From IMG/VR virus record IMGVR_UViG_3300047160_005625, positions 6,562 through 70,561 of that record: a DNA stretch of 64,000 bases. One strand, written 5' to 3'. Positions 1,855 through 30,806 of the stretch are shown in pieces. The position numbers and the translations under genes were made by a program. Every line of letters begins with the position of its first letter. Position 1 is the first letter of the stretch. The notes under the pieces were generated by a model. The model was not told the origin of the DNA, searched no databases, and worked only from the letters and a program-made list of their open reading frames with translations. The stretch comes from a virus (Duplodnaviria; Caudoviricetes).

Positions 1855-2366
1855 TGCAGCAGTTCAGCGCGACCTTGCTGCCCCAAGGGACTCCTGGAGG
1901 CCCCCCCGGACCCCAAGGCCCACAAGGCCCACAAGGCGATCCGGCTACGCAGACGCCTTGGGCGCAGGACATCGACGCGGCAGGCCATCAGTTGAATAAC
2001 GCGGGTGGCATCCATGTAAATGGCGATGTCGATATCACCGGCCACTATTACCGCAACGGCGTACAACTCTCCATTAGTACGCAGAACGTCGTCACCGCCT
2101 CCCGCGCCGCCAATACGGTTTATCAGAACACGACCGGCAAAACGATGTTCCTATCGGTCTGTTGGAATCTCGTGGGAACCGCCGCTACGCTTTCGCTTTT
2201 GAGCGACTCCTCCAATCCGCCGACAACTACGGTGGCGCAAATCGCCGATGCTTCGCCGCAATCGTTTACGGGTCAATTGTTTTGTTTGGTGTTGCCGGGA
2301 AACTACTATGAGTGCTCGGTGAGCGTTTCGGGACTCGCGCTGGTTTCCTGGGTGGAGTACGAGTAA
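1851..2366 (+). CDS. Short collagen-containing fibre/spike protein
   Basis: GPPGPQGPQGPQG triplets and a C-terminal SRAANTVYQNTTGK fibre-tip-like motif; ATGA overlap with the upstream gene. Confidence 0.65.
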   Translation: MMQQFSATLLPQGTPGGPPGPQGPQGPQGDPATQTPWAQDIDAAGHQLNNAGGIHVNGDVDITGHYYRNGVQLSISTQNVVTASRAANTVYQNTTGKTMFLSVCWNLVGTAATLSLLSDSSNPPTTTVAQIADASPQSFTGQLFCLVLPGNYYECSVSVSGLALVSWVEYE

Positions 2367-3976
2367 TGCCTGATACAGTCCTAGACGCTCCAGCCGTCCC
2401 TGCTGCTCCGGCGCAAGTGCCCGCGCTGCCGGTCGCGGTGCGCCCCGTCACGACCGTTCACAACCACGAGGATCACGTCACCAATCGGATCGCGGAGGCT
2501 CTTCAGAGGCATGCGCAGGCTGCGGCTCCCGCGCCGGTAGCCACATCTGCCGCGCCTACCCCCGCGCCTGAGGCGGCCCCTCCCCAGACCCCGCCAGCGG
2601 TTACGCCCGCTACCCCTGCGGAACCCGCCGCCCCGGAGCCGCTTTCGCTCGATGATATCGATTTCGACGCGCCCGAGGAGCCTGCCCAACCGAGTCCGGC
2701 CACTCCTCCAGCGCCGACTCCCGAGGGTGGCGGTGAAACACAGAGCGACCAACAAGCCATCGCCACCCTTCAGGAGATGCTCGACCGGGGCGAGATCCCC
2801 GAGAAAATCGAGTCGCAATTTCTTCGAACGCCGCGCGGTCGGGGAATGCTCGAAACCTATAAGACCTTCCGCGAGCTACGCAAGTCGCCGGAAGAGGGCG
2901 GGATCGGGCGCACTCCCACGGTCGATGAAATCAGGGAAGGCTATCACGCGAGCCAGCAACTCGAAGCCATGCGCTTTGAGGCTACGCAGAATCCCGATTC
3001 CTTCGTCGCCAATCTTTTTACGATCAACCCGCAAACGGGGCAGAGCTTTGTAGGCGATCCCGGCTCCACGCAAGCGGTCGTGGATCGCATCTATGGCCAC
3101 ATTGCCGAAGGTCTGAGGGTGTCGCGTGGCACCCCGATGGAGGGAGTATACGCAAACCTCCTTGCGTCCTACTCCCTCCCGGTGTTCAGCAATTTCCTCA
3201 ACCATCAGTACCGGAAAGCGATGGCCATGCCGCAGGCGTCGGATGTCGAAAAATCCGACAAAGCCCGAACGCTCGACGCCCTGCAAATTGTCGAGATGTT
3301 TGTCATGGGGAGGCCGCGACCCTTGAACCTGAATCAACCCGTCAACGGAACGCCCCAGCCAGGGATGATCGATCCCGAAAAAGAGGAGATGCGCAATCGT
3401 CTCCAGCAATACGATCAGTATTATCGGACCTCCCAGCAGCAGAATTATGACAACGTTCAAAACAACGTCATTCGTGGCAGCGAGGAAGCCGCCCTCAAAG
3501 ACATCGATCAGGTATTCCGCCAGCGCGGCATCACCAACGCCTACGACGCCGCCATGCTCGCCCCTCATCGCGAGGCCCTCTACAATCTGGTCGCCCGCTC
3601 CCTTCCTCAAGCCGATCCGAGAGGCTGGCAAACTTACGAACTCCAACTCCAACGTGCGGCGATGGGTCAGGCCGATCCCGCCGACGCGGCCAAGACGTAC
3701 CGAATTCTGTTTCAAAACGGGCTTCGTAATTTCCCGCAGGTGCGGGAAACTCTCGAAGTTCTCATTAGGAACGCTAAGAGCACCTCCGACCAACAGCATG
3801 CCCAACTCGCCGCTACGCAGAATCGTGTCGCGGTGAACGGGCAAGGCGCCCCCGCTCCTCAATCTGTATTGCCTGCCTCGCAGACCGCAAGGCAGCCAGG
3901 GCAATCCAAAGAGGACTTCTGGGCTGGCCGCATCGCGGACAAGCTGGGCGCCGCCGTCTCGAAGATGCGCACTTAG
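2366..3976 (+). CDS. Probable capsid scaffolding protein (536 aa from ATG 2366)
   Basis: Pro/Ala-rich N-terminus and helical acidic body, immediately upstream of the capsid gene. The start was moved from 2312 to the ATG overlapping the previous stop. Confidence 0.6.
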   Translation: MPDTVLDAPAVPAAPAQVPALPVAVRPVTTVHNHEDHVTNRIAEALQRHAQAAAPAPVATSAAPTPAPEAAPPQTPPAVTPATPAEPAAPEPLSLDDIDFDAPEEPAQPSPATPPAPTPEGGGETQSDQQAIATLQEMLDRGEIPEKIESQFLRTPRGRGMLETYKTFRELRKSPEEGGIGRTPTVDEIREGYHASQQLEAMRFEATQNPDSFVANLFTINPQTGQSFVGDPGSTQAVVDRIYGHIAEGLRVSRGTPMEGVYANLLASYSLPVFSNFLNHQYRKAMAMPQASDVEKSDKARTLDALQIVEMFVMGRPRPLNLNQPVNGTPQPGMIDPEKEEMRNRLQQYDQYYRTSQQQNYDNVQNNVIRGSEEAALKDIDQVFRQRGITNAYDAAMLAPHREALYNLVARSLPQADPRGWQTYELQLQRAAMGQADPADAAKTYRILFQNGLRNFPQVRETLEVLIRNAKSTSDQQHAQLAATQNRVAVNGQGAPAPQSVLPASQTARQPGQSKEDFWAGRIADKLGAAVSKMRT

Positions 3977-4086
3977 CGCGCCGATCCGCCTTTATGGGCG
4001 GAGTGTCATTCAAATTTCAGCCCTACACGCTAAGTGTGTGTGGACGGATCATGCACTAATTTAGGGATTAAAGGAATAAACAAGTT

Positions 4087-5743
4087 ATGGCTGCCGATAT
4101 CCTCAATACCGTAGCTACACAACTCGAAGTAGTTTTGCCTTAAAACCTTAGGGCCATGGCGAGGAAACTCGCCAATGCCAAGCTCGTGAATTGCTGGGAA
4201 GCCTACAGCTAGTAAGCCATGGTCATCAGCAGCCAAGCCTGTTTACAGGAAGGTTCAACGACTATCCCTTCGGGGAGTACCGCCAAGCGGCGGGAAGCGC
4301 GAGCCACCCTATATGGGGTGAAGATATAGTCTGGCCTGCATCGAAAGATGCAGAAGGCCGTGCGTAGCGAGCGCGGTCGCAACAAACGCGGAAATACAAG
4401 AAATTAATGCAGTTGATAACGATCAACTGTACGCTCGCGTAAAAAAGACAACCAAGGTCGAAAAGATCTCCCGCTACCTCCTGCGCTGGGCCTTGGAGCA
4501 GTATGTGGGCGGTAACTTTCAGAAAGTAGTCGCCGGAGGCGGCAACACCACCAGCGGCACTTCTCTGGGCCACGGCACCCAGATGAAACTCCAATACCTC
4601 CTTGCCGGGTACTTTACGTCCGACATCATCTTTCAGATGAGCGAAGAGCAGGCAGTTATTTCGCAGGGCCAACAAGCGATTATTGACGTGCTCTCCCGCC
4701 AGATCGCCAAGGCCGTCATTTCGCAGCAGGCGTATGACGACGTGACGTTCGCTCAAAACGGAAATGGGATTCTGACCAATTCCTCGTCGGCGGTGACTAA
4801 TGTCACTAATGCGACGTTGACATTCACGGCGGTCGGGCCGCCTGCCGACACATTGGGAGTGAACCTGTTGTTCGAAGGGATGACGGTAGACGTGTGGGAT
4901 TCGACGGGGTCGATCCTGCGTACCCCTGGCGTGGGCGCTCCTGTCCAGATTCTCGCGATTGATTATGACGCGCGACAGGTCACTCTGGATCAGACCATCA
5001 CCGGCTTGACGACCGGGGATATTCTCGCTCTGCGCCAGATGACCGTGTACGGTCCCGCCACTCTGACGAGCTTCCAGTCGGGGTATCCCGGCACGCAGGG
5101 CGGCTCGCCCACGGGCGGCATCGGCGGCGATTCGTTCCGTCACGGCTATCCGTACATGACGGACACCAACGCGTCGAATTACTTCTACGGCAAGCAGAAG
5201 TCGAGTTTGCCGCAGTTGAATCCGGTTCGGGTGAACGCCAATTCCGACACGCTTCAGTGGGAGCAAGGTCTGAGGGTGGTGGCCAAGATCAAGCAGAAGC
5301 GTCCGCAAAAGGAGCTTTGGCGGGATATCACCGGCATCGCTCACTCGACGCAGAAGGCGGCGGCGTTCGAACTCGGCATGTCGATCTCGCAGAAGCTTCT
5401 CCCCGGAAGCGAGTTCGGGCAATCGCTCGATCTGGTGCCCTCCAATCAAGCGAACTCGGATGAGTTTAACTTCGCGGGCATGCGCTGCATTGAGAGCACG
5501 CGGCAGGATCGGTCGCGCATCGACTTCATCAACTTCGACAAGATCGGGCGCGCGGAGGCGTCCGAGTATGCTCCCTACGCGCCAGGAGGCCAGACGATGC
5601 ACGTGGGCCGTGGCAGTGACGGCACATTGCAGACATGGTTTGAATGGGCATTCATGGCGTTCTACGAGAACGTCTGTTTCGATGCAGGCGCCTTTGCCCG
5701 CATCGATACGCTCGCTCCTCCGTCCCCCGCTTGGGACGCTTAA
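4087..5743 (+). CDS. Major capsid protein, join(4087..4140,4391..5743), 468 aa after splicing
   Basis: RBS AAAGGA then ATG 4087. Exon 1 MAADILNTVATQLEVVLP joins in frame to exon 2 EIQEINAVDNDQLYARVKK...ALEQYVGG. It follows the scaffold gene and has typical MCP size. The track ORF 4493..5743 is only the 3' part. Confidence 0.8.
4141..4390 (+). ncRNA. Group I self-splicing intron (IA2-like), 250 nt, no internal ORF
   Basis: P1 GCCU|UAA-AACC-UUAGGGC with a U.G pair at the splice site. Conserved P AAUUGCUGGGAA (4189), Q UCAGCAGCCAAG (4226), R GGUUCAACGACUAU (4252) and S AAGAUAUAGUC (4321). P7 GACUAU/AUAGUC, P3 GCUCGUG/CGCGAGC, terminal G4390. Removal restores the reading frame. Confidence 0.93.
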
Positions 5744-16382: not shown

Positions 16383-17053
16383 AAGCAGGGATATTCCTTT
16401 TTGCTCCGGCTTGCTTGTTGGCCCAAATCCCAACCGTTCATTTTGGGGTGCTTCCGTCAGGCGTAACGAGCGGTTCCACATTTACGCTTGCGGTGAGTAT
16501 CACGGCTTCAGCCATCGGTTGGGCCTCCGTTAGTTGGGGCATAACCATTACGAACGCAACGCTGATAAGTACGATTCCCGATGGTTCCCTGACGACGAAA
16601 TATTTGACGGCTGGAGTTAACGGGAATTGCGTGGTCAGCACCGCCCACATCATTGGGGGTCAAGGATATGATCTTGGGATCAATACGATTACTGCGGCTA
16701 CGGGACTGGCGGTTTATACCTTCCAGGCTGGCTCAAGCGGGACCATCACACTGAACCTAACAAACGTCTCATTAGCCGATGCGGTCGGCGCGGCGCTTTC
16801 TGTCAATGTAGGGCCGTCTGCTTCAATCTCAGTGGCGGCAAGTCCAACCATGAATTTCTGTGATTTGAGCGGGGCGGCTGGGCTTCCTGATGCGCAGGTC
16901 GATGGTTGGGACGTGGGAGCGGAGAATACCTGGATCGTATCCGGTCCTCCTCCTGGGAAAACGTGGGACCGTTTTGGGGATATGAATCCGGCGCGCAGCG
17001 CCCAAGCCATCATCTCGGCGGCGACGGGAGCGATGTGTACGGCAACGCAATGA
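16376..17053 (+). CDS. Secreted cohesin-like plus dockerin-like protein (225 aa)
   Basis: Signal peptide MLKAGIFLFAPACLLA|Q; cohesin-like GSTFTLAVSIT...YTFQA..SGTITLNLTNVSLADA.G; C-terminal CDL...VDGWDV...DRFGD...AQAIISAATG..C resembles degenerate dockerin repeats. Confidence 0.55.
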   Translation: MLKAGIFLFAPACLLAQIPTVHFGVLPSGVTSGSTFTLAVSITASAIGWASVSWGITITNATLISTIPDGSLTTKYLTAGVNGNCVVSTAHIIGGQGYDLGINTITAATGLAVYTFQAGSSGTITLNLTNVSLADAVGAALSVNVGPSASISVAASPTMNFCDLSGAAGLPDAQVDGWDVGAENTWIVSGPPPGKTWDRFGDMNPARSAQAIISAATGAMCTATQ

Positions 17054-17067
17054 AAAGGAGTATTTGA

Positions 17068-17388
17068 GTGAAGTTACTTGCAATATTGCTCTTGGCGGGC
17101 GGAGCTTACGCCCAAGACGGTTCGCCCCCTGCGGCGAAGCCGGATGCAAAAGCGGCCCCCGTGAATAAGGAAGTGGAAGACCTGAAGACCCAATTGGCGG
17201 GCATGAAGGCTACTCTGATTTCGCTTCAGGGGTCGCTCGTCACTTTGCAGAGGCAGGTAGCGGAGGCGAATCAAACTATCTTGATAGCGCGGATCTGCTC
17301 CGACGCCGGTCTGATCTGGGCGCAATGTCAAGTCGATCAAAACAATTGGACGGCAAAGCCCATCACCCCCGATCCCAAAAAACCCTAA
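17068..17388 (+). CDS. Secreted coiled-coil protein with a Cys pair
   Basis: AAGGAG RBS; signal peptide MKLLAILLLAGGAYA|Q; heptad stretch, then C..C. Confidence 0.7.
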   Translation: MKLLAILLLAGGAYAQDGSPPAAKPDAKAAPVNKEVEDLKTQLAGMKATLISLQGSLVTLQRQVAEANQTILIARICSDAGLIWAQCQVDQNNWTAKPITPDPKKP

Positions 17389-17876
17389 GCTACATGTTTC
17401 CACGTTCTGCGAAGGCGGATATGCGAGATCAGCCCTTTGGACACTCTCAATTCCTGAGCAAGACCAGTGCAACTACCCGGACTATTCCGAATGTACCGAA
17501 CTTGTTCTTCCGTAAGCTTGCTGCTCCTATGGCCTTCGCCCATAAGGAAGTTGAAGTTGTCTTTAAATGGAATGTACTCCAGGTTGTCTGGCCATCGATT
17601 ATCCAGCTTGTTGCGATTTATATGATTAACAATGTATCCAGGTGGACGTGGCCCCACAAAAGCTTGCATAACCATTTCATGGTTTGTTCGGGTGACTCTG
17701 CGTATGCCATCACTTAAGAGGACGTGGGCATATCCAGGTTTATTGTTGCTGACTCCTGGGCGCAAAACTTTCCCAGGTCTTGCTCCTTTTCCTCGGGAGA
17801 TGCGCCTTGTCCGACCTAAGTTCGAAACCTCGTAAAACTGTTCAAAGCCCTTAACCGGTAGCCATTTCTCATCCAT
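17385..17876 (-). CDS. NUMOD4-HNH homing endonuclease
   Basis: EKWLPVKGFEQFYEVSNLGR (NUMOD4), VNHINRNKLDNRWPDNLEY (HNH) and a C-terminal HTH; likely start MDEKW at 17876. Confidence 0.88.
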   Translation of the reverse strand: MDEKWLPVKGFEQFYEVSNLGRTRRISRGKGARPGKVLRPGVSNNKPGYAHVLLSDGIRRVTRTNHEMVMQAFVGPRPPGYIVNHINRNKLDNRWPDNLEYIPFKDNFNFLMGEGHRSSKLTEEQVRYIRNSPGSCTGLAQELRVSKGLISHIRLRRTWKHVA

Positions 17877-17898
17877 AGGTCCATAGGATAACCTCACC

Positions 17899-20800
17899 AT
17901 GGGCGCACTCGCAATCCCGCAAATCGGACAACCGCCTGGAACCTACAATTATCCATCATCGGCTTACAATCCGATGAATGCGCGTGATGTCTATAACATG
18001 TATGGTGGTCTGGGGCAGAGTTACTTTGATTGGGGTCAATCGTTCGGCACGCAGCAAGGGGCGCTCGCCAACTACTATGGCGGGAACGAGGCGGGTTATG
18101 GCAATCTCACGAATCAACTTTATTCCCCGATCTGGCAAGGGGGTGGAGGGTATACCCCCGAGCAGATGCAGAATGTTCTGCAATCGCAGGGTCTGCAAGA
18201 TGTGCTCGCGCAGAGTCCGAATAACTTCCTAAGCCAGGGTCAGCAGTCCGCGATTCTCGGCGATCCTTATTCTGCGTTTAAGGCCTTCATCCCGCAGGCG
18301 CAGGGAATCGCGCAGGGCGGGAATCAGATTCAGCAGAACTTCGCGAATGCGGCCCAACAGGGTCAGCAGGCCGGCACAGGCGTCCTGGGGCAATGGCAAT
18401 CGAACCTTCAGGGAGCGCTCGCCCCATTCGGCGGTCAGGTCAACACGGCTCTTAACACCGGAGCGGGCCAACTCGCAGCGGCGCAAGGCAATCCGCTGCT
18501 TTCTCCGACCGCGCAGTATTACCAGCAGGCCGGTGTTTCCGATCAGCAAGTGCAAGACATGGCCGAAGCTGCGGCGCGCGGTGTCGGCGCTCAATTCGGC
18601 GCGACCAAGGACCAAGTATTGGCCGCCGCGCAGGCGAGCGGTTATGGAACTCCGCTGGGAATCGCGTCCGCTATGGGCGCATTGGATCGGTCGAGCGCGG
18701 CGGGTCAATCCGATGCTCTGCTGAATGCGCGAATGCAGGCTCTCGCGGCGCAACGGCAAGCGGCGCAGAACATACAGAATACGCAGTTGAACGCGGGCCA
18801 ATATCAGGCGGGCCTCGCATCATCGAACGCTCTCGCCGAGCAGAATGCGCGGATCGCGGCGGCGCAGGCAGTCACGGGAATGAATGTCAATGCCGCGAAC
18901 ACCATCGGTCAGGCAGGCCAGCAGCAGACTCAATTCGACACCGGCCAAATGATGAATGCGATTGGCCAGGGCGGCACATTTGCACAGAACGCCGCCATGT
19001 GGGGTGCCGGGAATGAAGCGCAAATGCAGCAGGCCGCAGAAGCAGCGGCGGCGCAGCGCAATTGGAACCTGGGAACGAATGTCCAGCAGACCAATATGTA
19101 TAACCAGAACATGGGTTTGCAGGGCAATCAGATCATGTCCCAGCGGTATCAGCAAGCCTATCAGCCCTGGTTGCAAGAACAGTACATGGGGCTGCAAATG
19201 GCTCCGCAGCAGCAGAACTATTACGGCAGCCAAGCCAACAACGCTTATGGGCGGCAGTTGCAGGGGCAAGGAGTCATGCAGCAGGGCACGCTAGGGGCGG
19301 CGGGAGGCTACGCGGGCTGGGGAGAGAACCAACAGCAAACATCAGGAGCGACGGGCATTCTGAGAAATATCGGTCAAGGCGCGAGCGTGCTCAAACCCGG
19401 CGGCGGCGGCGGAGGTGGCGGAAATTACAGCGGCTATGGCGGCGCCAGAGGCGGCACGATTGATCATCACCAACTGATCGAAGTCGGCGAAGAGGACAAG
19501 CCCGAGATGATTCTGCCGCTCTCGCCGCGCACGCCCGACCATGGCCGTAATCCTTACGAAAAGATAGGCGCCGGCATCGGCGAAATGTTGGGCATTCCGC
19601 AACATGATGGATACCAAAAGGGCGGGATTGCGGGGGATAAGTGGGCCACGAATATTTTCCACGATCCGAACGCGGGCCAATTGCAATACGATCCGCTGTA
19701 CATGGCGCCAGGGCCAACGCAAGGCATGACGAAGCCTGGAACGATCAATTTGAAGACTCTGCCGCCCGTGGATCTTGGCGACGGTTATTGGGGGACGGTG
19801 AGGAGCGCTTCGCGCGAGGACGATAACGGCAACGAGGTCTTATACCCAACCATTGTCAACGGACGCCCAGTGGACGACGAGAGCGCATGGCGCTACGCGC
19901 AAGGTACGGGTCGCAATTTAGGCACGTTCAGGACTCCGCAAGACGCCGACGCCTACGCCGAGCGGCTGCACAGCGATTGGGAAAAGGGTCTGATTCCCGG
20001 CGTGCAAATGCATGGGAAGCCGAATGGTTACGCAACGGGCGGAATCGCGGATGACACAAACTCATTCGAGCACATTTTGGAGGGCGAAGAAATGGCTGAA
20101 GGGCGGGAATTACCAGATTATTTGACGCGAGGCGGTGGTTACGCGCGAGGCGGCACAACTCCGAGCGGCATTCATATTAAGCCATCTCATGCAGGCCGAC
20201 TCCACGAGAATCTGGGGATCGCGCAGGACAAACCGATTCCTCGGTCCAGACTTGAGGAGGCAAAACAGAGCGACAGCCCCGCCATCCGCAAGCAGGCGAA
20301 TTTCGCATTGAATGCTCGTGGCTGGGATCATGCTGCCCATGGCCTGATGGTGCCGAGTGTACGGGCTACCCCGAGGGTAGCGGCGATGCCGATGGCGAGA
20401 TCGGGAATCCATCTCAACATGCCGATCCGAGGCATGCGGCTTCAAGCGCCGATCCGACCGGCCATGCTGCCACGAGGGGGAGTGCAGCGATTCGCGCGTG
20501 GCGGAGTCCTGGGTTATGGTCCCCAAGGGAATGAATTCGGCTCGCAGGAGCGCGAAGCCGAGAACCTGCCGTGGGGCACGCACGACAACGATTACCGGGG
20601 CGCGGAGTATGGCGAGTTTCAGCGCTTCGGCAGGCCAGAGCCGTTTCAGGCCGGTGGAATTCTCGGGGCGATAGGAAGCGGACTAGGCGCTGTCGGCAAG
20701 GGCATAGGCCAGCAACTCTACAACCAATATGTACAGCCCTATTTGCCGCCGCCCTCGCAACCCGCGCCTCCGGCTCCACCTCCGTTAGCAATAGGCGGTC

Positions 20801-25361: not shown

Positions 25362-25932
25362 TGTCGTCCTAGTCCTACTGGCGCTAGCAACTTATGCCCA
25401 GACGGGCGGGACGCCGGTAACGTTGAACGGCTATCCTCAGTCGCAGCCGACTCGCTTCCTCGATTACGACGCCAACGGGAACCTCGCCTATATCTGCTAC
25501 ACCACGCCATCGGGGATTGCTGCCTACTACAATTACTCTCGCTCCGTGATGGGCGGCACGCTCACGTCTATCGTGGTGGCCACGAATGTAGGCACGGTCA
25601 CGACCGTGGGCGCTCATGGCCTGATGGTCGGCCAGGGAGTGACCGTCTCGGGGGCCACGCTGGGCGCTTTGAACGCCACCTATATCATCGCGACTGTACC
25701 GTCCACTACCACTTTCACCATTACCACGACGGGCGTGGCGGATGGGACTTACAATAACGTCGCGCTTACCATATCAGGGAGTGCGCCGCTCCTGACTTCG
25801 CCTATCTGGTCAATAAATAAGCTCACATACTCTGCTGGAAATTCCCTGATCGGTTCGCAATGGGCCTTGGGCGCTGCCGGAAATTATACGAGCATTTGCG
25901 CGAATCGTGCCACGATTAACACCTACAAATAA
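25342..25932 (+). CDS. Secreted beta-rich protein with E1-FCCH-like domain (196 aa)
   Basis: Signal peptide MSAIKSSVVLVLLALATYA|Q; TVTTVGAHGLMVGQGVTVSGAT...LNATYIIATVPSTTTFT. Confidence 0.65.
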   Translation: MSAIKSSVVLVLLALATYAQTGGTPVTLNGYPQSQPTRFLDYDANGNLAYICYTTPSGIAAYYNYSRSVMGGTLTSIVVATNVGTVTTVGAHGLMVGQGVTVSGATLGALNATYIIATVPSTTTFTITTTGVADGTYNNVALTISGSAPLLTSPIWSINKLTYSAGNSLIGSQWALGAAGNYTSICANRATINTYK

Positions 25933-28900
25933 TCCTCCAGGATTCGTAATATCCCAAGAGGAGGCGGGCCGCTTATCGCAGGATCAGTACGAGATCATCG
26001 GTGGCCAGTCCCGACCCTGGTGGCCGTGGCAAATACGGGGCCTGACCTGTCTGTGCGACGAAATCGCGTTGTTGGGCGGCAAGGGGGGGGGCAAATCGGA
26101 ATTGATGCGTGCGTGGTTGGTCAGCGGTAATCCTCATTTATCGGATCGCGACGAACGCGGTAATGATATTTCCTGGAATCGAACATATACCGAACACCCA
26201 TACTATCGCGGTTTGATCCTCAGGAAAAATGAGGGAGACTTGGCGGATTTTATCAAGCGTGCCGCCCGAATGTGGAAGTCGTTGGCTGGCGAGTATAAGA
26301 ACGGCAGGTTCGAGTTCCCCTCTGGGGCCGTGATCGATGTCGGTCACATGAAAGATCAGACCGCATGGATGAAGTACGTCGGAATCGAGTATGTACGAAT
26401 CGCTATCGATGAAGTGGGCCTAATCAAGGATTACAGCCTGTTTGAGGAGCTTCGCTCCACGATGCGTACCCCCTACCCGGAATTGCGATGCCAGATCATG
26501 GTAGCTTCCAACGCGGGTGGCCCAGGCACTTCGTGGCTCATTGAGAGGTACATGAAAGCCAGGGATACGGACGGAAACATCATTCCTCACGACAATGTGA
26601 TCACTGAGGAATATATGCATCCCTTTACTGGGGAAAAGAGGTTTCGCACCAGGATATGGATGTTCAGCACCATCCAAGATAATCCGATTTACACCAAATC
26701 CGATTACGCCATAACGTTGATGTCGCTCTCCGATCCAAAGCTGCGACGAGCCTATTTTGAGGGGCATTGGGATGCACTGTTCGGCTCCTATTTCTGCTTC
26801 AAGAAAGGGACTGAGATTTTGACCGATCAGGGATGGATGGACATCACATCTGTAGTAAAAGGGCAGCCAGTCGCTACGCTCAGTCCATCCATGGAGATGA
26901 GTTTCGAACCATGCACCATGACCAAATCTTTTCCCTTTCTCGGGGAGATGCGCGAGTTCAATGGTAAATCGTTGAGGTTTTCAGTTACGCCGAATCACCG
27001 TATGTATTCGCGCTTATCTGGGAAAAACGAATACGCCATGATTCCGGTGGATGATTTGCCTAGCTCCAGCGAATATCTACGGGCAGCGGCTATTTACAGA
27101 GGCACTTCGCCCGAAGAGATTATTATAAAGGACGATTCGATTCTTTCCAAATGGGTGAAGCTGGCGTGCATCGTATGTGGATCATTGTATTTAGCCAAGG
27201 CTCACCGACTGCGGCATCGGCGTAGAACCACCTGTTCGCGTCCCTGTTCTTATGTCGCCAGAGTAGCATATCGTGGCCACAAGTCAGAATTTGCCCCGAC
27301 AGTCGTGGGGCATATCGACAGCATAGATTGGCATCGGTTTGACCCTGGAGACTGGGCAGAATTACTCGGCTGGTACATAACAGAGGGCAGTATTGAGCGG
27401 AGAAAAGGAGTTGTAATAGGGTTCACAATTTCGCAGTATGAGGCTGTCAATCGAGCAAAGTGTCAGCGGATCGCAACACTACTGAGACGCATGGGTTTAT
27501 CGTTCACCCGAGACGATATGCGGTTTAGAGTGCATTCCACGGCCCTCGGGAAAGTCCTGGCTCACCTTGGAACTAGCAGATCCAAGTACATTCCGAGGGA
27601 AGTGGTCAATTACAAAAAGGACCATTTAGAACGGTTATTCGAAGCCCTGATGCTGGGGGATGGATGCCCGAGCACCAATTGCCAGGGAGCATATGAGTAT
27701 TTTACTGTTTCCAAGCGATTGGCCGATGACATTCAGGAATTATGCGCTCGTCTTGGCAGGATATGTTTTATCGGAAGGAGGCCATCAAAGAACCCTAAGC
27801 ATGCGGATGGTTATTACTTGCATATTCGGAGGCCAGGGAAGCTAACATCGCACGTCAGGAAGACGGATATAGTGAGTGTTCCTTATGAGGGTCTGGTCGC
27901 CTGCGTAACTGTGGAACCGTATCATACGGTGTTGGTCAGATACGAAGGCTCTGCGATGTGGTGCGGAAACAGTGACCTATTCCGGCCAGATGGGCCGATT
28001 AAGGTCAATAATGAACCGCCCAACGCCAATCATGTCCTAAAGCCCATGCTCGCCGGGACGGAGAAGCGCTACCCGATAGAGATCAAACCTTGGCACCACA
28101 TTACGATGGGCGGCGATTGGGGCTATGCGCATGAGGCCGCGTTTCTATGGGCGCGGCAATTGCCGGATAAGCGCGTCGTGATTTACCGCGAGTTCGTGGC
28201 GGACCACACATCTCCGGTGCGGCTGGGTTTCGAGATCGCGCAGAAGTCGCTCAAGGAACTTGAAGGGCTGCCATCGCACTCGTTTACGTTGTGGCTCAGC
28301 CATGACGCCTTTCGCAACGACCGAGGGGAGCGATCCACGGCGGAACTGATCGCGGCGGGGATCTCCAAGGTGCTTGGCCCCAAGGCAGTCCATCTGCCGG
28401 ATCTGATGATTCGAAATTTGCGCGAATCCTTCGCGATGGAATCTTTCAACCGCTATACCGCAGAGCAACAGCAGGAGGCCATCGATCAGATATTGCTCCA
28501 GCGGCGCACTGGGATCACGATTCGGATTGCCGAGAAGACCGGCGTGATCGGCTGGCAGCATTGCCGCGAGCTAATGCAGTGGGAGTCGTTCGGAGAGCCG
28601 AATACGCAACGCGACCCAGAGTTCGCGCGGAAGCTCCTCCATGAGAATCCCAAGGCGTTTGAGGCTTACGTGGAGTCATTCCGGGATATTCCGGTCGAGG
28701 TCCGTCCGCGCTTGCAGATTTACGATTGCTGCCCCAGGCTAATTACCGCCATTCCTCGGGCGCTCCATGAAGACGGCACAGAAAACGTCGATAAGGCGCA
28801 TTTCATCGGCAAGGATTTAATCGACGCCTTTTCCTACTTAGTGAGTGGACTCATGGACGAGGCTCCGGCTGAGCCATTCGAGGCGTTCCGCGAGCGGCGG

Positions 28901-29116
28901 CTTGAAGAGAGTTCCCGGTATTACGGCAGCGATCTCACGACCAACGATCTCTGCCGGATTCACGAGTCCATCGAAGGCGAGTGGAAGGACATGCAACAGG
29001 ACTTCTCTCCGGTGACGCCGCCGCGCATGGCTCGCCTCGGTCGCCTGATGCGCCAGGGCAAGATCCGACCGGAGCAGAATATCGACCGCATTTTGGGAAT
29101 CGAACATTATGGCTAG
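25907..29116 (+). CDS. terL: Terminase large subunit containing an intein
   Basis: Walker A GGKGGGKS, Walker B IAIDE, ASNAGGPG coupling motif, RNase H-like nuclease GGDWGY...D...DLIDAFSY. Confidence 0.9.
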   Translation: MPRLTPTNNPPGFVISQEEAGRLSQDQYEIIGGQSRPWWPWQIRGLTCLCDEIALLGGKGGGKSELMRAWLVSGNPHLSDRDERGNDISWNRTYTEHPYYRGLILRKNEGDLADFIKRAARMWKSLAGEYKNGRFEFPSGAVIDVGHMKDQTAWMKYVGIEYVRIAIDEVGLIKDYSLFEELRSTMRTPYPELRCQIMVASNAGGPGTSWLIERYMKARDTDGNIIPHDNVITEEYMHPFTGEKRFRTRIWMFSTIQDNPIYTKSDYAITLMSLSDPKLRRAYFEGHWDALFGSYFCFKKGTEILTDQGWMDITSVVKGQPVATLSPSMEMSFEPCTMTKSFPFLGEMREFNGKSLRFSVTPNHRMYSRLSGKNEYAMIPVDDLPSSSEYLRAAAIYRGTSPEEIIIKDDSILSKWVKLACIVCGSLYLAKAHRLRHRRRTTCSRPCSYVARVAYRGHKSEFAPTVVGHIDSIDWHRFDPGDWAELLGWYITEGSIERRKGVVIGFTISQYEAVNRAKCQRIATLLRRMGLSFTRDDMRFRVHSTALGKVLAHLGTSRSKYIPREVVNYKKDHLERLFEALMLGDGCPSTNCQGAYEYFTVSKRLADDIQELCARLGRICFIGRRPSKNPKHADGYYLHIRRPGKLTSHVRKTDIVSVPYEGLVACVTVEPYHTVLVRYEGSAMWCGNSDLFRPDGPIKVNNEPPNANHVLKPMLAGTEKRYPIEIKPWHHITMGGDWGYAHEAAFLWARQLPDKRVVIYREFVADHTSPVRLGFEIAQKSLKELEGLPSHSFTLWLSHDAFRNDRGERSTAELIAAGISKVLGPKAVHLPDLMIRNLRESFAMESFNRYTAEQQQEAIDQILLQRRTGITIRIAEKTGVIGWQHCRELMQWESFGEPNTQRDPEFARKLLHENPKAFEAYVESFRDIPVEVRPRLQIYDCCPRLITAIPRALHEDGTENVDKAHFIGKDLIDAFSYLVSGLMDEAPAEPFEAFRERRLEESSRYYGSDLTTNDLCRIHESIEGEWKDMQQDFSPVTPPRMARLGRLMRQGKIRPEQNIDRILGIEHYG
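26795..27970 (+). mobile_element. Intein (392 aa) with LAGLIDADG homing endonuclease
   Basis: Starts CFKKGTEILT, block B VTPNHRM, LAGLIDADG blocks LLGWYITEG and ALMLGDG, ends WCGN|S. Exteins rejoin as WDALFGSYF|SDLF. Confidence 0.92.
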
Positions 29117-30004: not shown

Positions 30005-30240
30005 CCTTGGAGGAGATCAGAGACCACCTCATTCATCTGAACAAAGACGGGGTTTACCTGCTTTTCGTAGATCCCGAGAAAATCAGCATTCGGGACTTGG
30101 ACAGACACTTAGAATCAACCGCTCCTGAGGATATGCCGAATATCATGATCGTCGCCTCCAAAGATGGGCATACTCCGGTTTACGTAGAGTCCGTGAATTA
30201 CATAAAGGATTGGATTTCCGCAATTGAGGGCGCCGAGTGA
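30001..30240 (+). CDS. Hypothetical protein (79 aa)
   Basis: GGAG RBS; ATGA and GTGA overlaps with its neighbours. Confidence 0.6.
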   Translation: MTLEEIRDHLIHLNKDGVYLLFVDPEKISIRDLDRHLESTAPEDMPNIMIVASKDGHTPVYVESVNYIKDWISAIEGAE

Positions 30241-30806
30241 CTGTACCGGATATCATCGAATACAGGGGCAAGGAGTATAGACGATATCCAGAATCTAAGG
30301 ACTGGCGGACGAGAACGTATTTCAGAAGGCGCTATAGAATAGGCCGCAAAACCGTCAACGAAGATTTACATCGCCTTATCTGGGAAGAGTTTAATGGATC
30401 TATTCCCGCCGGCCATCATATCCACCATATAGACGAGGACCCTTCTAATAATCTCCTTGAGAATCTGGAATGCTTGCCGGGGGCCGAGCATAACAGGCTT
30501 CACGCTCGTGGTTGGGGTAGATCGGAAAAGGGGCGTCAATGGAAACGCGATTGGTGGACCCGTAAGCCCTCTATCCTTCTATCCTGTAAATTGTGCGGCA
30601 CGTCATTTGAAGCCAGAATGTCTGATGCGGAATATTGATCATTCCGGTGCGCTCAGAGGGCCAGACGCGCCTCTGGAAAACTCAATGACAACAGAGTATG
30701 TGTGATCTGTGGTGGACACTTTTACACTTTGAAATACCGACCGACTCAGACTTGTAGCCCTAAATGCCGGGGTACGCTCCAAAGCCAGAACTTCAAGCGA
30801 TCTTAA
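30237..30806 (+). pseudogene. HNH endonuclease with Zn-finger tail, interrupted by in-frame TGA at 30636-30638
   Basis: LHRLIWEEFNG.IP.GHHIHHIDEDPSNN..ENL (HNH). The same frame continues past TGA as SFRC...CVICGG...TCSPKC to TAA 30804-30806, 3 nt before the portal start. Confidence 0.75.

Follow-up and report, generated by a model that had tools for sequence, protein, structure and literature searches.

An ORF-less, IA2-like group I intron in the predicted HK97-fold major capsid protein gene of an uncultured phage

Introduction

Group I introns in phage capsid genes are already known. In mycobacteriophage LittleE, a temperate phage with GC-rich DNA, the gene of the major capsid subunit carries an intron of ~820 bp with an endonuclease ORF. 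RT-PCR together with N-terminal sequencing proved that this intron is spliced (Pope et al. 2013, PMC3706429). An ORF-less intron of 265 bp in a tail gene of BAKA is also described there, and the lactococcal phage Tuc2009 is cited as a further case of a capsid-gene intron. In the LittleE and BAKA introns, exon 1 ends with U and the intron ends with G, and both genomes also contain inteins and free-standing HNH genes (PMC3706429). Among the crAss-like phages (Crassvirales), in the Delta and Zeta phages the MCP gene has group I introns and TerL has an intein; an MCP gene with three introns is reported, and introns are also present in PolB and primase (PMC10136315).

The locus described here lies in a window of 64,000 nucleotides, the whole stretch of DNA analysed, from an uncultured phage. 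Like LittleE, it has an intron in the major capsid gene of a GC-rich, probably temperate phage, and the exon 1 terminal U and the intron terminal G are those of the LittleE and BAKA introns. At 250 nt and without an ORF, the intron is close to that of BAKA. In contrast to the LittleE intron, which is much longer, encodes an endonuclease and is proven to splice, it is known from sequence alone. The pairing of an MCP intron with a probable TerL intein is shared with the crAss-like phages. However, these belong to an unrelated lineage with an unrelated MCP family and have introns in several genes, whereas the present record has one group I intron only. The original prediction had started from the classic view that phage group I introns lie in DNA-metabolism genes. 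With capsid-gene cases published in two studies (PMC3706429, PMC10136315), the premise that confines them to such genes is out of date, and the window intron is an ordinary new example. It is one more data point for the view that, in environmental phages, small group I introns are common in essential late and structural genes and not just in DNA-metabolism genes. Its genome also has a terminase gene with a LAGLIDADG domain and free-standing HNH genes, and alone the intron opens no new question.

The phage record

The record, an IMG/VR contig, is linear and 70.6 kb long, has 56% GC, and is estimated by CheckV to be 83% complete. The phage is probably temperate, judging from its gene content, because the record encodes a serine recombinase and RecT. 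The capsid region had no match among 50,697 phage records by DNA comparison and tblastn, which leaves the phage without a cultured relative in that set. Prophage copies, sought in bacterial genomes with a single-protein query in order to infer the host, were also not found.

Intron boundaries and reading frame

Exon 1 of the capsid gene occupies 4087-4140 (+) of the window. It starts with the ATG at 4087, which is preceded by a Shine-Dalgarno-like AAAGGAA motif ~10 nt upstream, and comprises 18 codons (MAADILNTVATQLEVVLP) with the last base at 4140. The intron spans 4141-4390 (+) and is 250 nt long, and its first three bases (4141-4143) form a TAA that is in frame with exon 1. Exon 2 begins at 4391 (EIQEINAV...) in frame +1 relative to exon 1, and runs through 450 open codons to the stop at 5741-5743 (4391-5743, +). 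Joining 4087-4140 to 4391-5740 gives a protein of 468 aa. The insert of 250 nt after codon 18 and the TAA at its first base had been proposed at the outset, and both the coordinates and the arithmetic are correct.

The Rfam family RF00028 matches 4131-4353 over the entire model (positions 1-253) with 101.5 bits and an E value of 3.7e-25, well above the gathering cut-off of 50 bits. It is the sole Rfam family in the 64-kb window, and the capsid-gene intron is the sole group I match in the whole 70,561-bp virus record. The covariance-model check suggested with the original prediction is thereby answered in its favour.

The 5' splice site is placed after U4140, which forms a wobble pair with G4151 within a P1 of 9 bp. 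Given this site, the terminal G4390 lies directly 5' of exon 2 and restores the frame. The splice sites are set at 4140 and 4390 because of the U.G pair and the terminal G, as protein colinearity alone permits a one-base shift of both. The predicted junction (VVLP/EIQE, the slash marking the junction) is colinear with intron-less homologues at both the protein and the DNA level, in agreement with the claim that excision gives an uninterrupted ORF. In the alignment of the spliced product, ~90 uninterrupted homologues run across the junction without a gap. The uninterrupted homologue P0002 is 69% identical, shares 16 of the 18 residues of the exon 1 N-terminus, and reads ...QLEVVLPEIQEINAVDNDQLY... 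across the junction. Its DNA, on contig L013, is the nearest intron-less allele and is colinear, with ...CTGCCC/GAGATT... against ...TTGCCT/GAAATA... in the window. The search for intron-less capsid alleles proposed earlier has thus been productive. The exact 24-mer of the spliced or intron-less junction is absent from the viral contig and metagenome contig collections, and therefore no near-identical intron-less allele is present there.

Fold and covariation of the ribozyme core

The sequence, the fold, the covariation and the colinearity of the exons are direct observations on this locus. The unconstrained minimum free energy (MFE) fold of the intron has -108.6 kcal/mol (z = -4.83), none of 200 shuffles is as stable, and it recovers every named helix except the P7 pseudoknot. 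Covariation was scored on this intron and six related introns from IMG/VR contigs. In this set 91.6% of the cells are standard pairs, compared with 31-45% in slid controls, in which the 3' partners were moved by 1-3 columns. Compensatory changes occur in 32 of the 57 pairs, and none of 500 shuffles reaches any of the observed measures. The covarying helices are P3, P6a, P7.2, P8, and P9. P4, P7, and P7.1 are invariant, and for these covariation is silent either way; the invariance of P7.1 is partly due to the relatives having been found with a 26-mer that covers it.

All elements of the core are on the plus strand. P1 (4135-4143 with 4148-4156) is present in the Rfam alignment and in the MFE fold. 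P2 (4158-4173) has 6 bp and a GAAA tetraloop and is supported by the same two sources; the relatives have this helix, although it is poorly aligned among them and 66.7% of its cells are paired. P3 (4182-4188 with 4298-4304) encloses P4-P6, the 5' strand of P7, P7.1, and P7.2, and has 100% of its cells paired with compensatory changes in 5 of 7 pairs. The P4-P6 domain (4192-4254) is found by the comparative alignment and the MFE fold. It consists of P4 (4192-4197 with 4226-4231), P5 (4202-4203 with 4221-4222), P5a (4208-4210 with 4215-4217), P6 (4232-4233 with 4253-4254), and P6a (4238-4241 with 4246-4249), and three of the four pairs in P6a covary.

The P7 pseudoknot (4260-4264 with 4327-4331) is invariant in 7 of 7 related introns and conserved in the introns of Staphylococcus phage Twort, and it is expected to be the guanosine-binding helix. 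It is followed by P7.1 (4265-4276; 4 bp, UUCG loop), which appears in the comparative alignment, the MFE fold and the Twort alignment, and by P7.2 (4280-4293; 5 bp, AAGC loop), in which 97% of the cells are paired and all five pairs show compensatory changes. The P8 hairpin (4305-4320) has 89.5% of its cells paired and 3 covarying pairs, and J8/7 lies at 4321-4326. P9 (4336-4353) is a 7-bp helix with a GAAA tetraloop, with 91.8% of its cells paired and 6 covarying pairs, and the MFE fold adds a P9.1 of 8 bp (4356-4378). A possible P9.0 of 2 bp (4334-4335 with 4388-4389), immediately 5' of G4390, and a weak P10 of ~2 bp were noted by inspection. Every element of the full group I core named in the original prediction is accordingly found in the Rfam alignment, the comparative count or the MFE fold.

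Subgroup and comparison with the Twort introns

The criteria for the group I classes have been described (PMC3984707). In Staphylococcus phage Twort, three RF00028 matches cluster at NC_007021 16606-17506, adjoining an ORF annotated 'virion structural protein' beside the tail sheath gene. We take this cluster to be the classic Twort orf142 introns, the archetype of IA2. A hallmark of the IA introns is a pair of helices, P7.1 and P7.2, that separates the 5' strand of P7 from the 3' strand of P3. The window intron has both helices at this place and is colinear with the Twort introns, and on these grounds it is classed as IA2-like, as had been proposed; the class is a well-supported resemblance drawn from the general RF00028 model, and IA1 or IA3 is possible.

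The Twort introns are likewise small phage introns with an identical order of helices, including P7.1 and P7.2. The J8/7-P7 string GATATAGTCT is common to them and the window intron, and both have a P9 hairpin with a GAAA-type loop. The RF00028 score of the window intron (101.5 bits) is similar to those of functional Twort introns (100.9 and 97.4 bits). A helix-for-helix alignment was obtained with Twort 16973-17197 and 17248-17506, but identity over the aligned positions is only 52-55%. Moreover, Twort has three introns in one gene, whereas the window capsid gene has one, and Twort is a low-GC Staphylococcus myovirus, in contrast to the uncultured phage with 56% GC.

The interrupted capsid gene

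Sequence-profile searches of the capsid protein against Pfam, PHROGs and the PDB gave no match. An AlphaFold2 model built on 54 homologues has a pLDDT of 85.4 and a pTM of 0.83, and Foldseek returned 245 PDB matches at E <= 1e-3, for example 9ny2_A (4e-10) and HK97 (2ft1). Among the matches listed, every one is a capsid protein from a phage or a phage-like particle. The interrupted gene is, by its modelled fold only, that of an HK97-fold major capsid protein. Hence the earlier naming of a major capsid gene stands on the fold, while no curated sequence family recognises the protein.

With exon 2 as the query, 96 homologues were recovered, almost all of them uninterrupted and 447-468 aa long. 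No group I intron was found in 11 related capsid loci of 33-43% identity, and every other full-length homologue examined is uninterrupted at the insertion site, so that the insertion is sporadic within the capsid family. The site lies a few codons 3' of a nearly invariant E-x-V motif. A 370-aa homologue (P0021) was considered as a second interrupted allele and rejected, as its gene runs off the contig end. A core-less mini-intron or a second interruption in the capsid gene was also rejected, because both exons align to the homologues without extra gaps.

The public gene call (P0001) is an ORF of 416 aa starting at TTG 4493, which is the first in-frame start in exon 2. This start has no Shine-Dalgarno-like motif before it and would drop 52 residues, including family-invariant positions such as R32 of exon 2. 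The main value of the present analysis is annotation, in that the spliced capsid protein of 468 aa replaces this N-terminally shortened call. In addition, a very divergent HK97-fold capsid family with no Pfam or PHROG model is recognised. The HK97 fold of this family is recognisable by structure prediction alone, and the family is a candidate for a new family model. The family has ~96 members, mostly metagenomic, on contigs of up to 76.7 kb.

Directly 5' of the capsid gene is an ORF of 554 aa (2312-3976, +) with a Pro/Ala-rich N-terminal third and no family match. Judging from where it lies, it may encode a scaffold or protease-scaffold protein. The intron-less contig L013 carries an ORF of 534 aa at the matching position.

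Proposed splicing and origin of the intron

The reading preferred here, with a probability of about 0.92, is that 4141-4390 is a functional, ORF-less, IA2-like group I intron after codon 18 of a single HK97-fold capsid gene, and that it is a selfish passenger. The chemistry, the splicing in vivo and the release of ribosomes would be as established for group I introns in general. Once the late transcript is made, its ribozyme core would fold into P3-P8, P4-P6, P7 with P7.1 and P7.2, P9, and P9.1. P7 would bind an external guanosine, which would attack after U4140, held in P1 by the U.G wobble, and the freed exon 1 would then attack after the terminal G4390. Ligation of ...TTGCCT to GAAATA... 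would create the 468-aa frame. Ribosomes translating exon 1 would terminate at the UAA that opens the intron, before they could reach and disrupt the core; stop codons in frame shortly after the 5' splice site are well known from the group I introns of bacteria and phages (PMC3984707). The capsid gene is present in a single copy in the record, which, at an estimated 83% completeness, leaves some room for another capsid gene beyond the contig. Since the intron interrupts the copy present, capsid synthesis would require splicing, as had been anticipated. The lineage would have picked up this passenger sporadically, and, with the capsid gene being essential, the intron would have retained its ability to splice.

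The distribution of related introns bears on this origin. Over its conserved half, the core is 70-79% identical to introns of many cultured phages, among them Alteromonas AD45, Campylobacter phages, Staphylococcus phages, and several Escherichia phages of ~137-144 kb, as well as to the terL intron of DSS3_VP1. Ten IMG/VR contigs share, without a mismatch, a stretch of 26 nt that covers P6', P7, and P7.1, and nine of them carry RF00028 matches. The related environmental introns (IMG/VR contigs L016-L024) have the same architecture as the window intron. Three relatives in one alignment (A4) are 67.9-69.0% identical to it overall, and local BLAST matches reach 72-78%. However, they lie in other genes or other capsid families and at non-homologous positions. 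On L017 and L018 the intron is in a ribonucleotide reductase gene (RNR, phrog_367) and is followed by an endonuclease ORF, and on L019 and L022 it interrupts the major head protein genes phrog_3437 and phrog_283, respectively, both unrelated to the window capsid. The occurrence of the same intron lineage in unrelated genes points to a horizontally moving selfish element and not to a lineage-specific regulator.

How such an element without an endonuclease would move is a separate matter. No endonuclease ORF is present within the intron, where the only ORFs, of 58 and 36 aa, overlap core helices, as the original prediction had held. It had also suggested mobilisation in trans by two HNH genes and an intein endonuclease in the window, and these genes are indeed there. 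Both HNH genes belong to the HNH_3 type (PF13392, 41.8 and 64.6 bits), at 17385-17900 (-) with the domain at 17556-17681 (-) and at ~30237-30806 (+) with the domain at 30366-30497 (+), while PF01844 (HNH) gave no match in the genome. An ORF of 1069 aa at 25907-29116 (+) matches PHROGs of the terminase large subunit at residues 34-298 and LAGLIDADG_3 at residues 579-640, and is probably a TerL gene split by an intein that carries a homing endonuclease. Cases are on record in which an ORF-less intron homes in collaboration with a free-standing endonuclease (PMC3984707), and the ORF-less intron described here shares its genome with candidate enzymes of the free-standing and the intein type. However, the HNH_3 genes lie ~13 kb and ~26 kb from the intron and not beside the insertion site. 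In the documented cases of collaborative homing, the endonuclease gene is reported to adjoin the intron-bearing gene. No endonuclease gene or other extra gene adjoins the capsid gene, whose neighbours appear, from ORF sizes only, to be ordered as in the intron-less L013. Moreover, LAGLIDADG intein endonucleases, the type found in the terminase gene, normally target their own intein-less allele. Mobilisation of this intron by any of the three enzymes is therefore unlikely.

Still less probable is a regulatory role, in which splicing would be modulated, for example by the GTP level, by the state of translation, or by a factor of the phage or the host, to time or throttle capsid production. The dependence of a single-copy capsid gene on splicing fits such a gate, and the UAA at the 5' splice site could place a terminating ribosome on P1 and thus couple exon 1 translation to P1 folding. 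For the introns of T4, splicing in vivo is reported to vary with translation and with the growth state of the host. If GTP level or translation load determined how efficiently the intron is spliced, splicing would serve in this temperate phage as a checkpoint tuning capsid output to the host state, which we consider improbable. The claim that splicing gates late-gene output found no supporting sequence feature, as the Rfam search of the window yielded the intron and neither a riboswitch nor any other ligand-sensing or regulatory RNA beside it. Over 90 homologous capsid genes work without the intron, which argues against a conserved role for it in the control of late genes, and the occurrence of its lineage in unrelated genes such as RNR is as expected for a selfish element.

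The least probable reading is that of a decayed or protein-dependent intron or a defective-prophage pseudogene, with the capsid protein made from TTG 4493 or not at all; the public 416-aa call favours it, but the core equals the functional Twort introns in its RF00028 score, all helices are intact, both exons are open and conserved, and the TTG start has the defects noted above.

Further observations on related introns

The window intron (4125-4160) and the L019 intron (1613-1650) have a near-identical P1 design, ...GCCT/TAAA...TTAGGGCC, although outside P1 the two are only ~68% identical and their insertion positions are non-homologous. The shared P1 could be due to chance or could hint at the choice of reverse-splicing sites by a short guide-sequence match.

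On L022, an IMG/VR contig of 74.8 kb, the phrog_283 gene is split after ~48 codons (~3973-4860, -), with ~670 nt between the end of the Rfam match and the next capsid ORF. This head gene may have a long 3' extension, a second intron, or small exons. L020 and L021, which both have the 26-nt core motif, each have two closely spaced RF00028 matches. On L020 an ORF for a GIY-YIG/HNH-type homing endonuclease lies just 5' of the first match, and L021 also has six tRNA genes.
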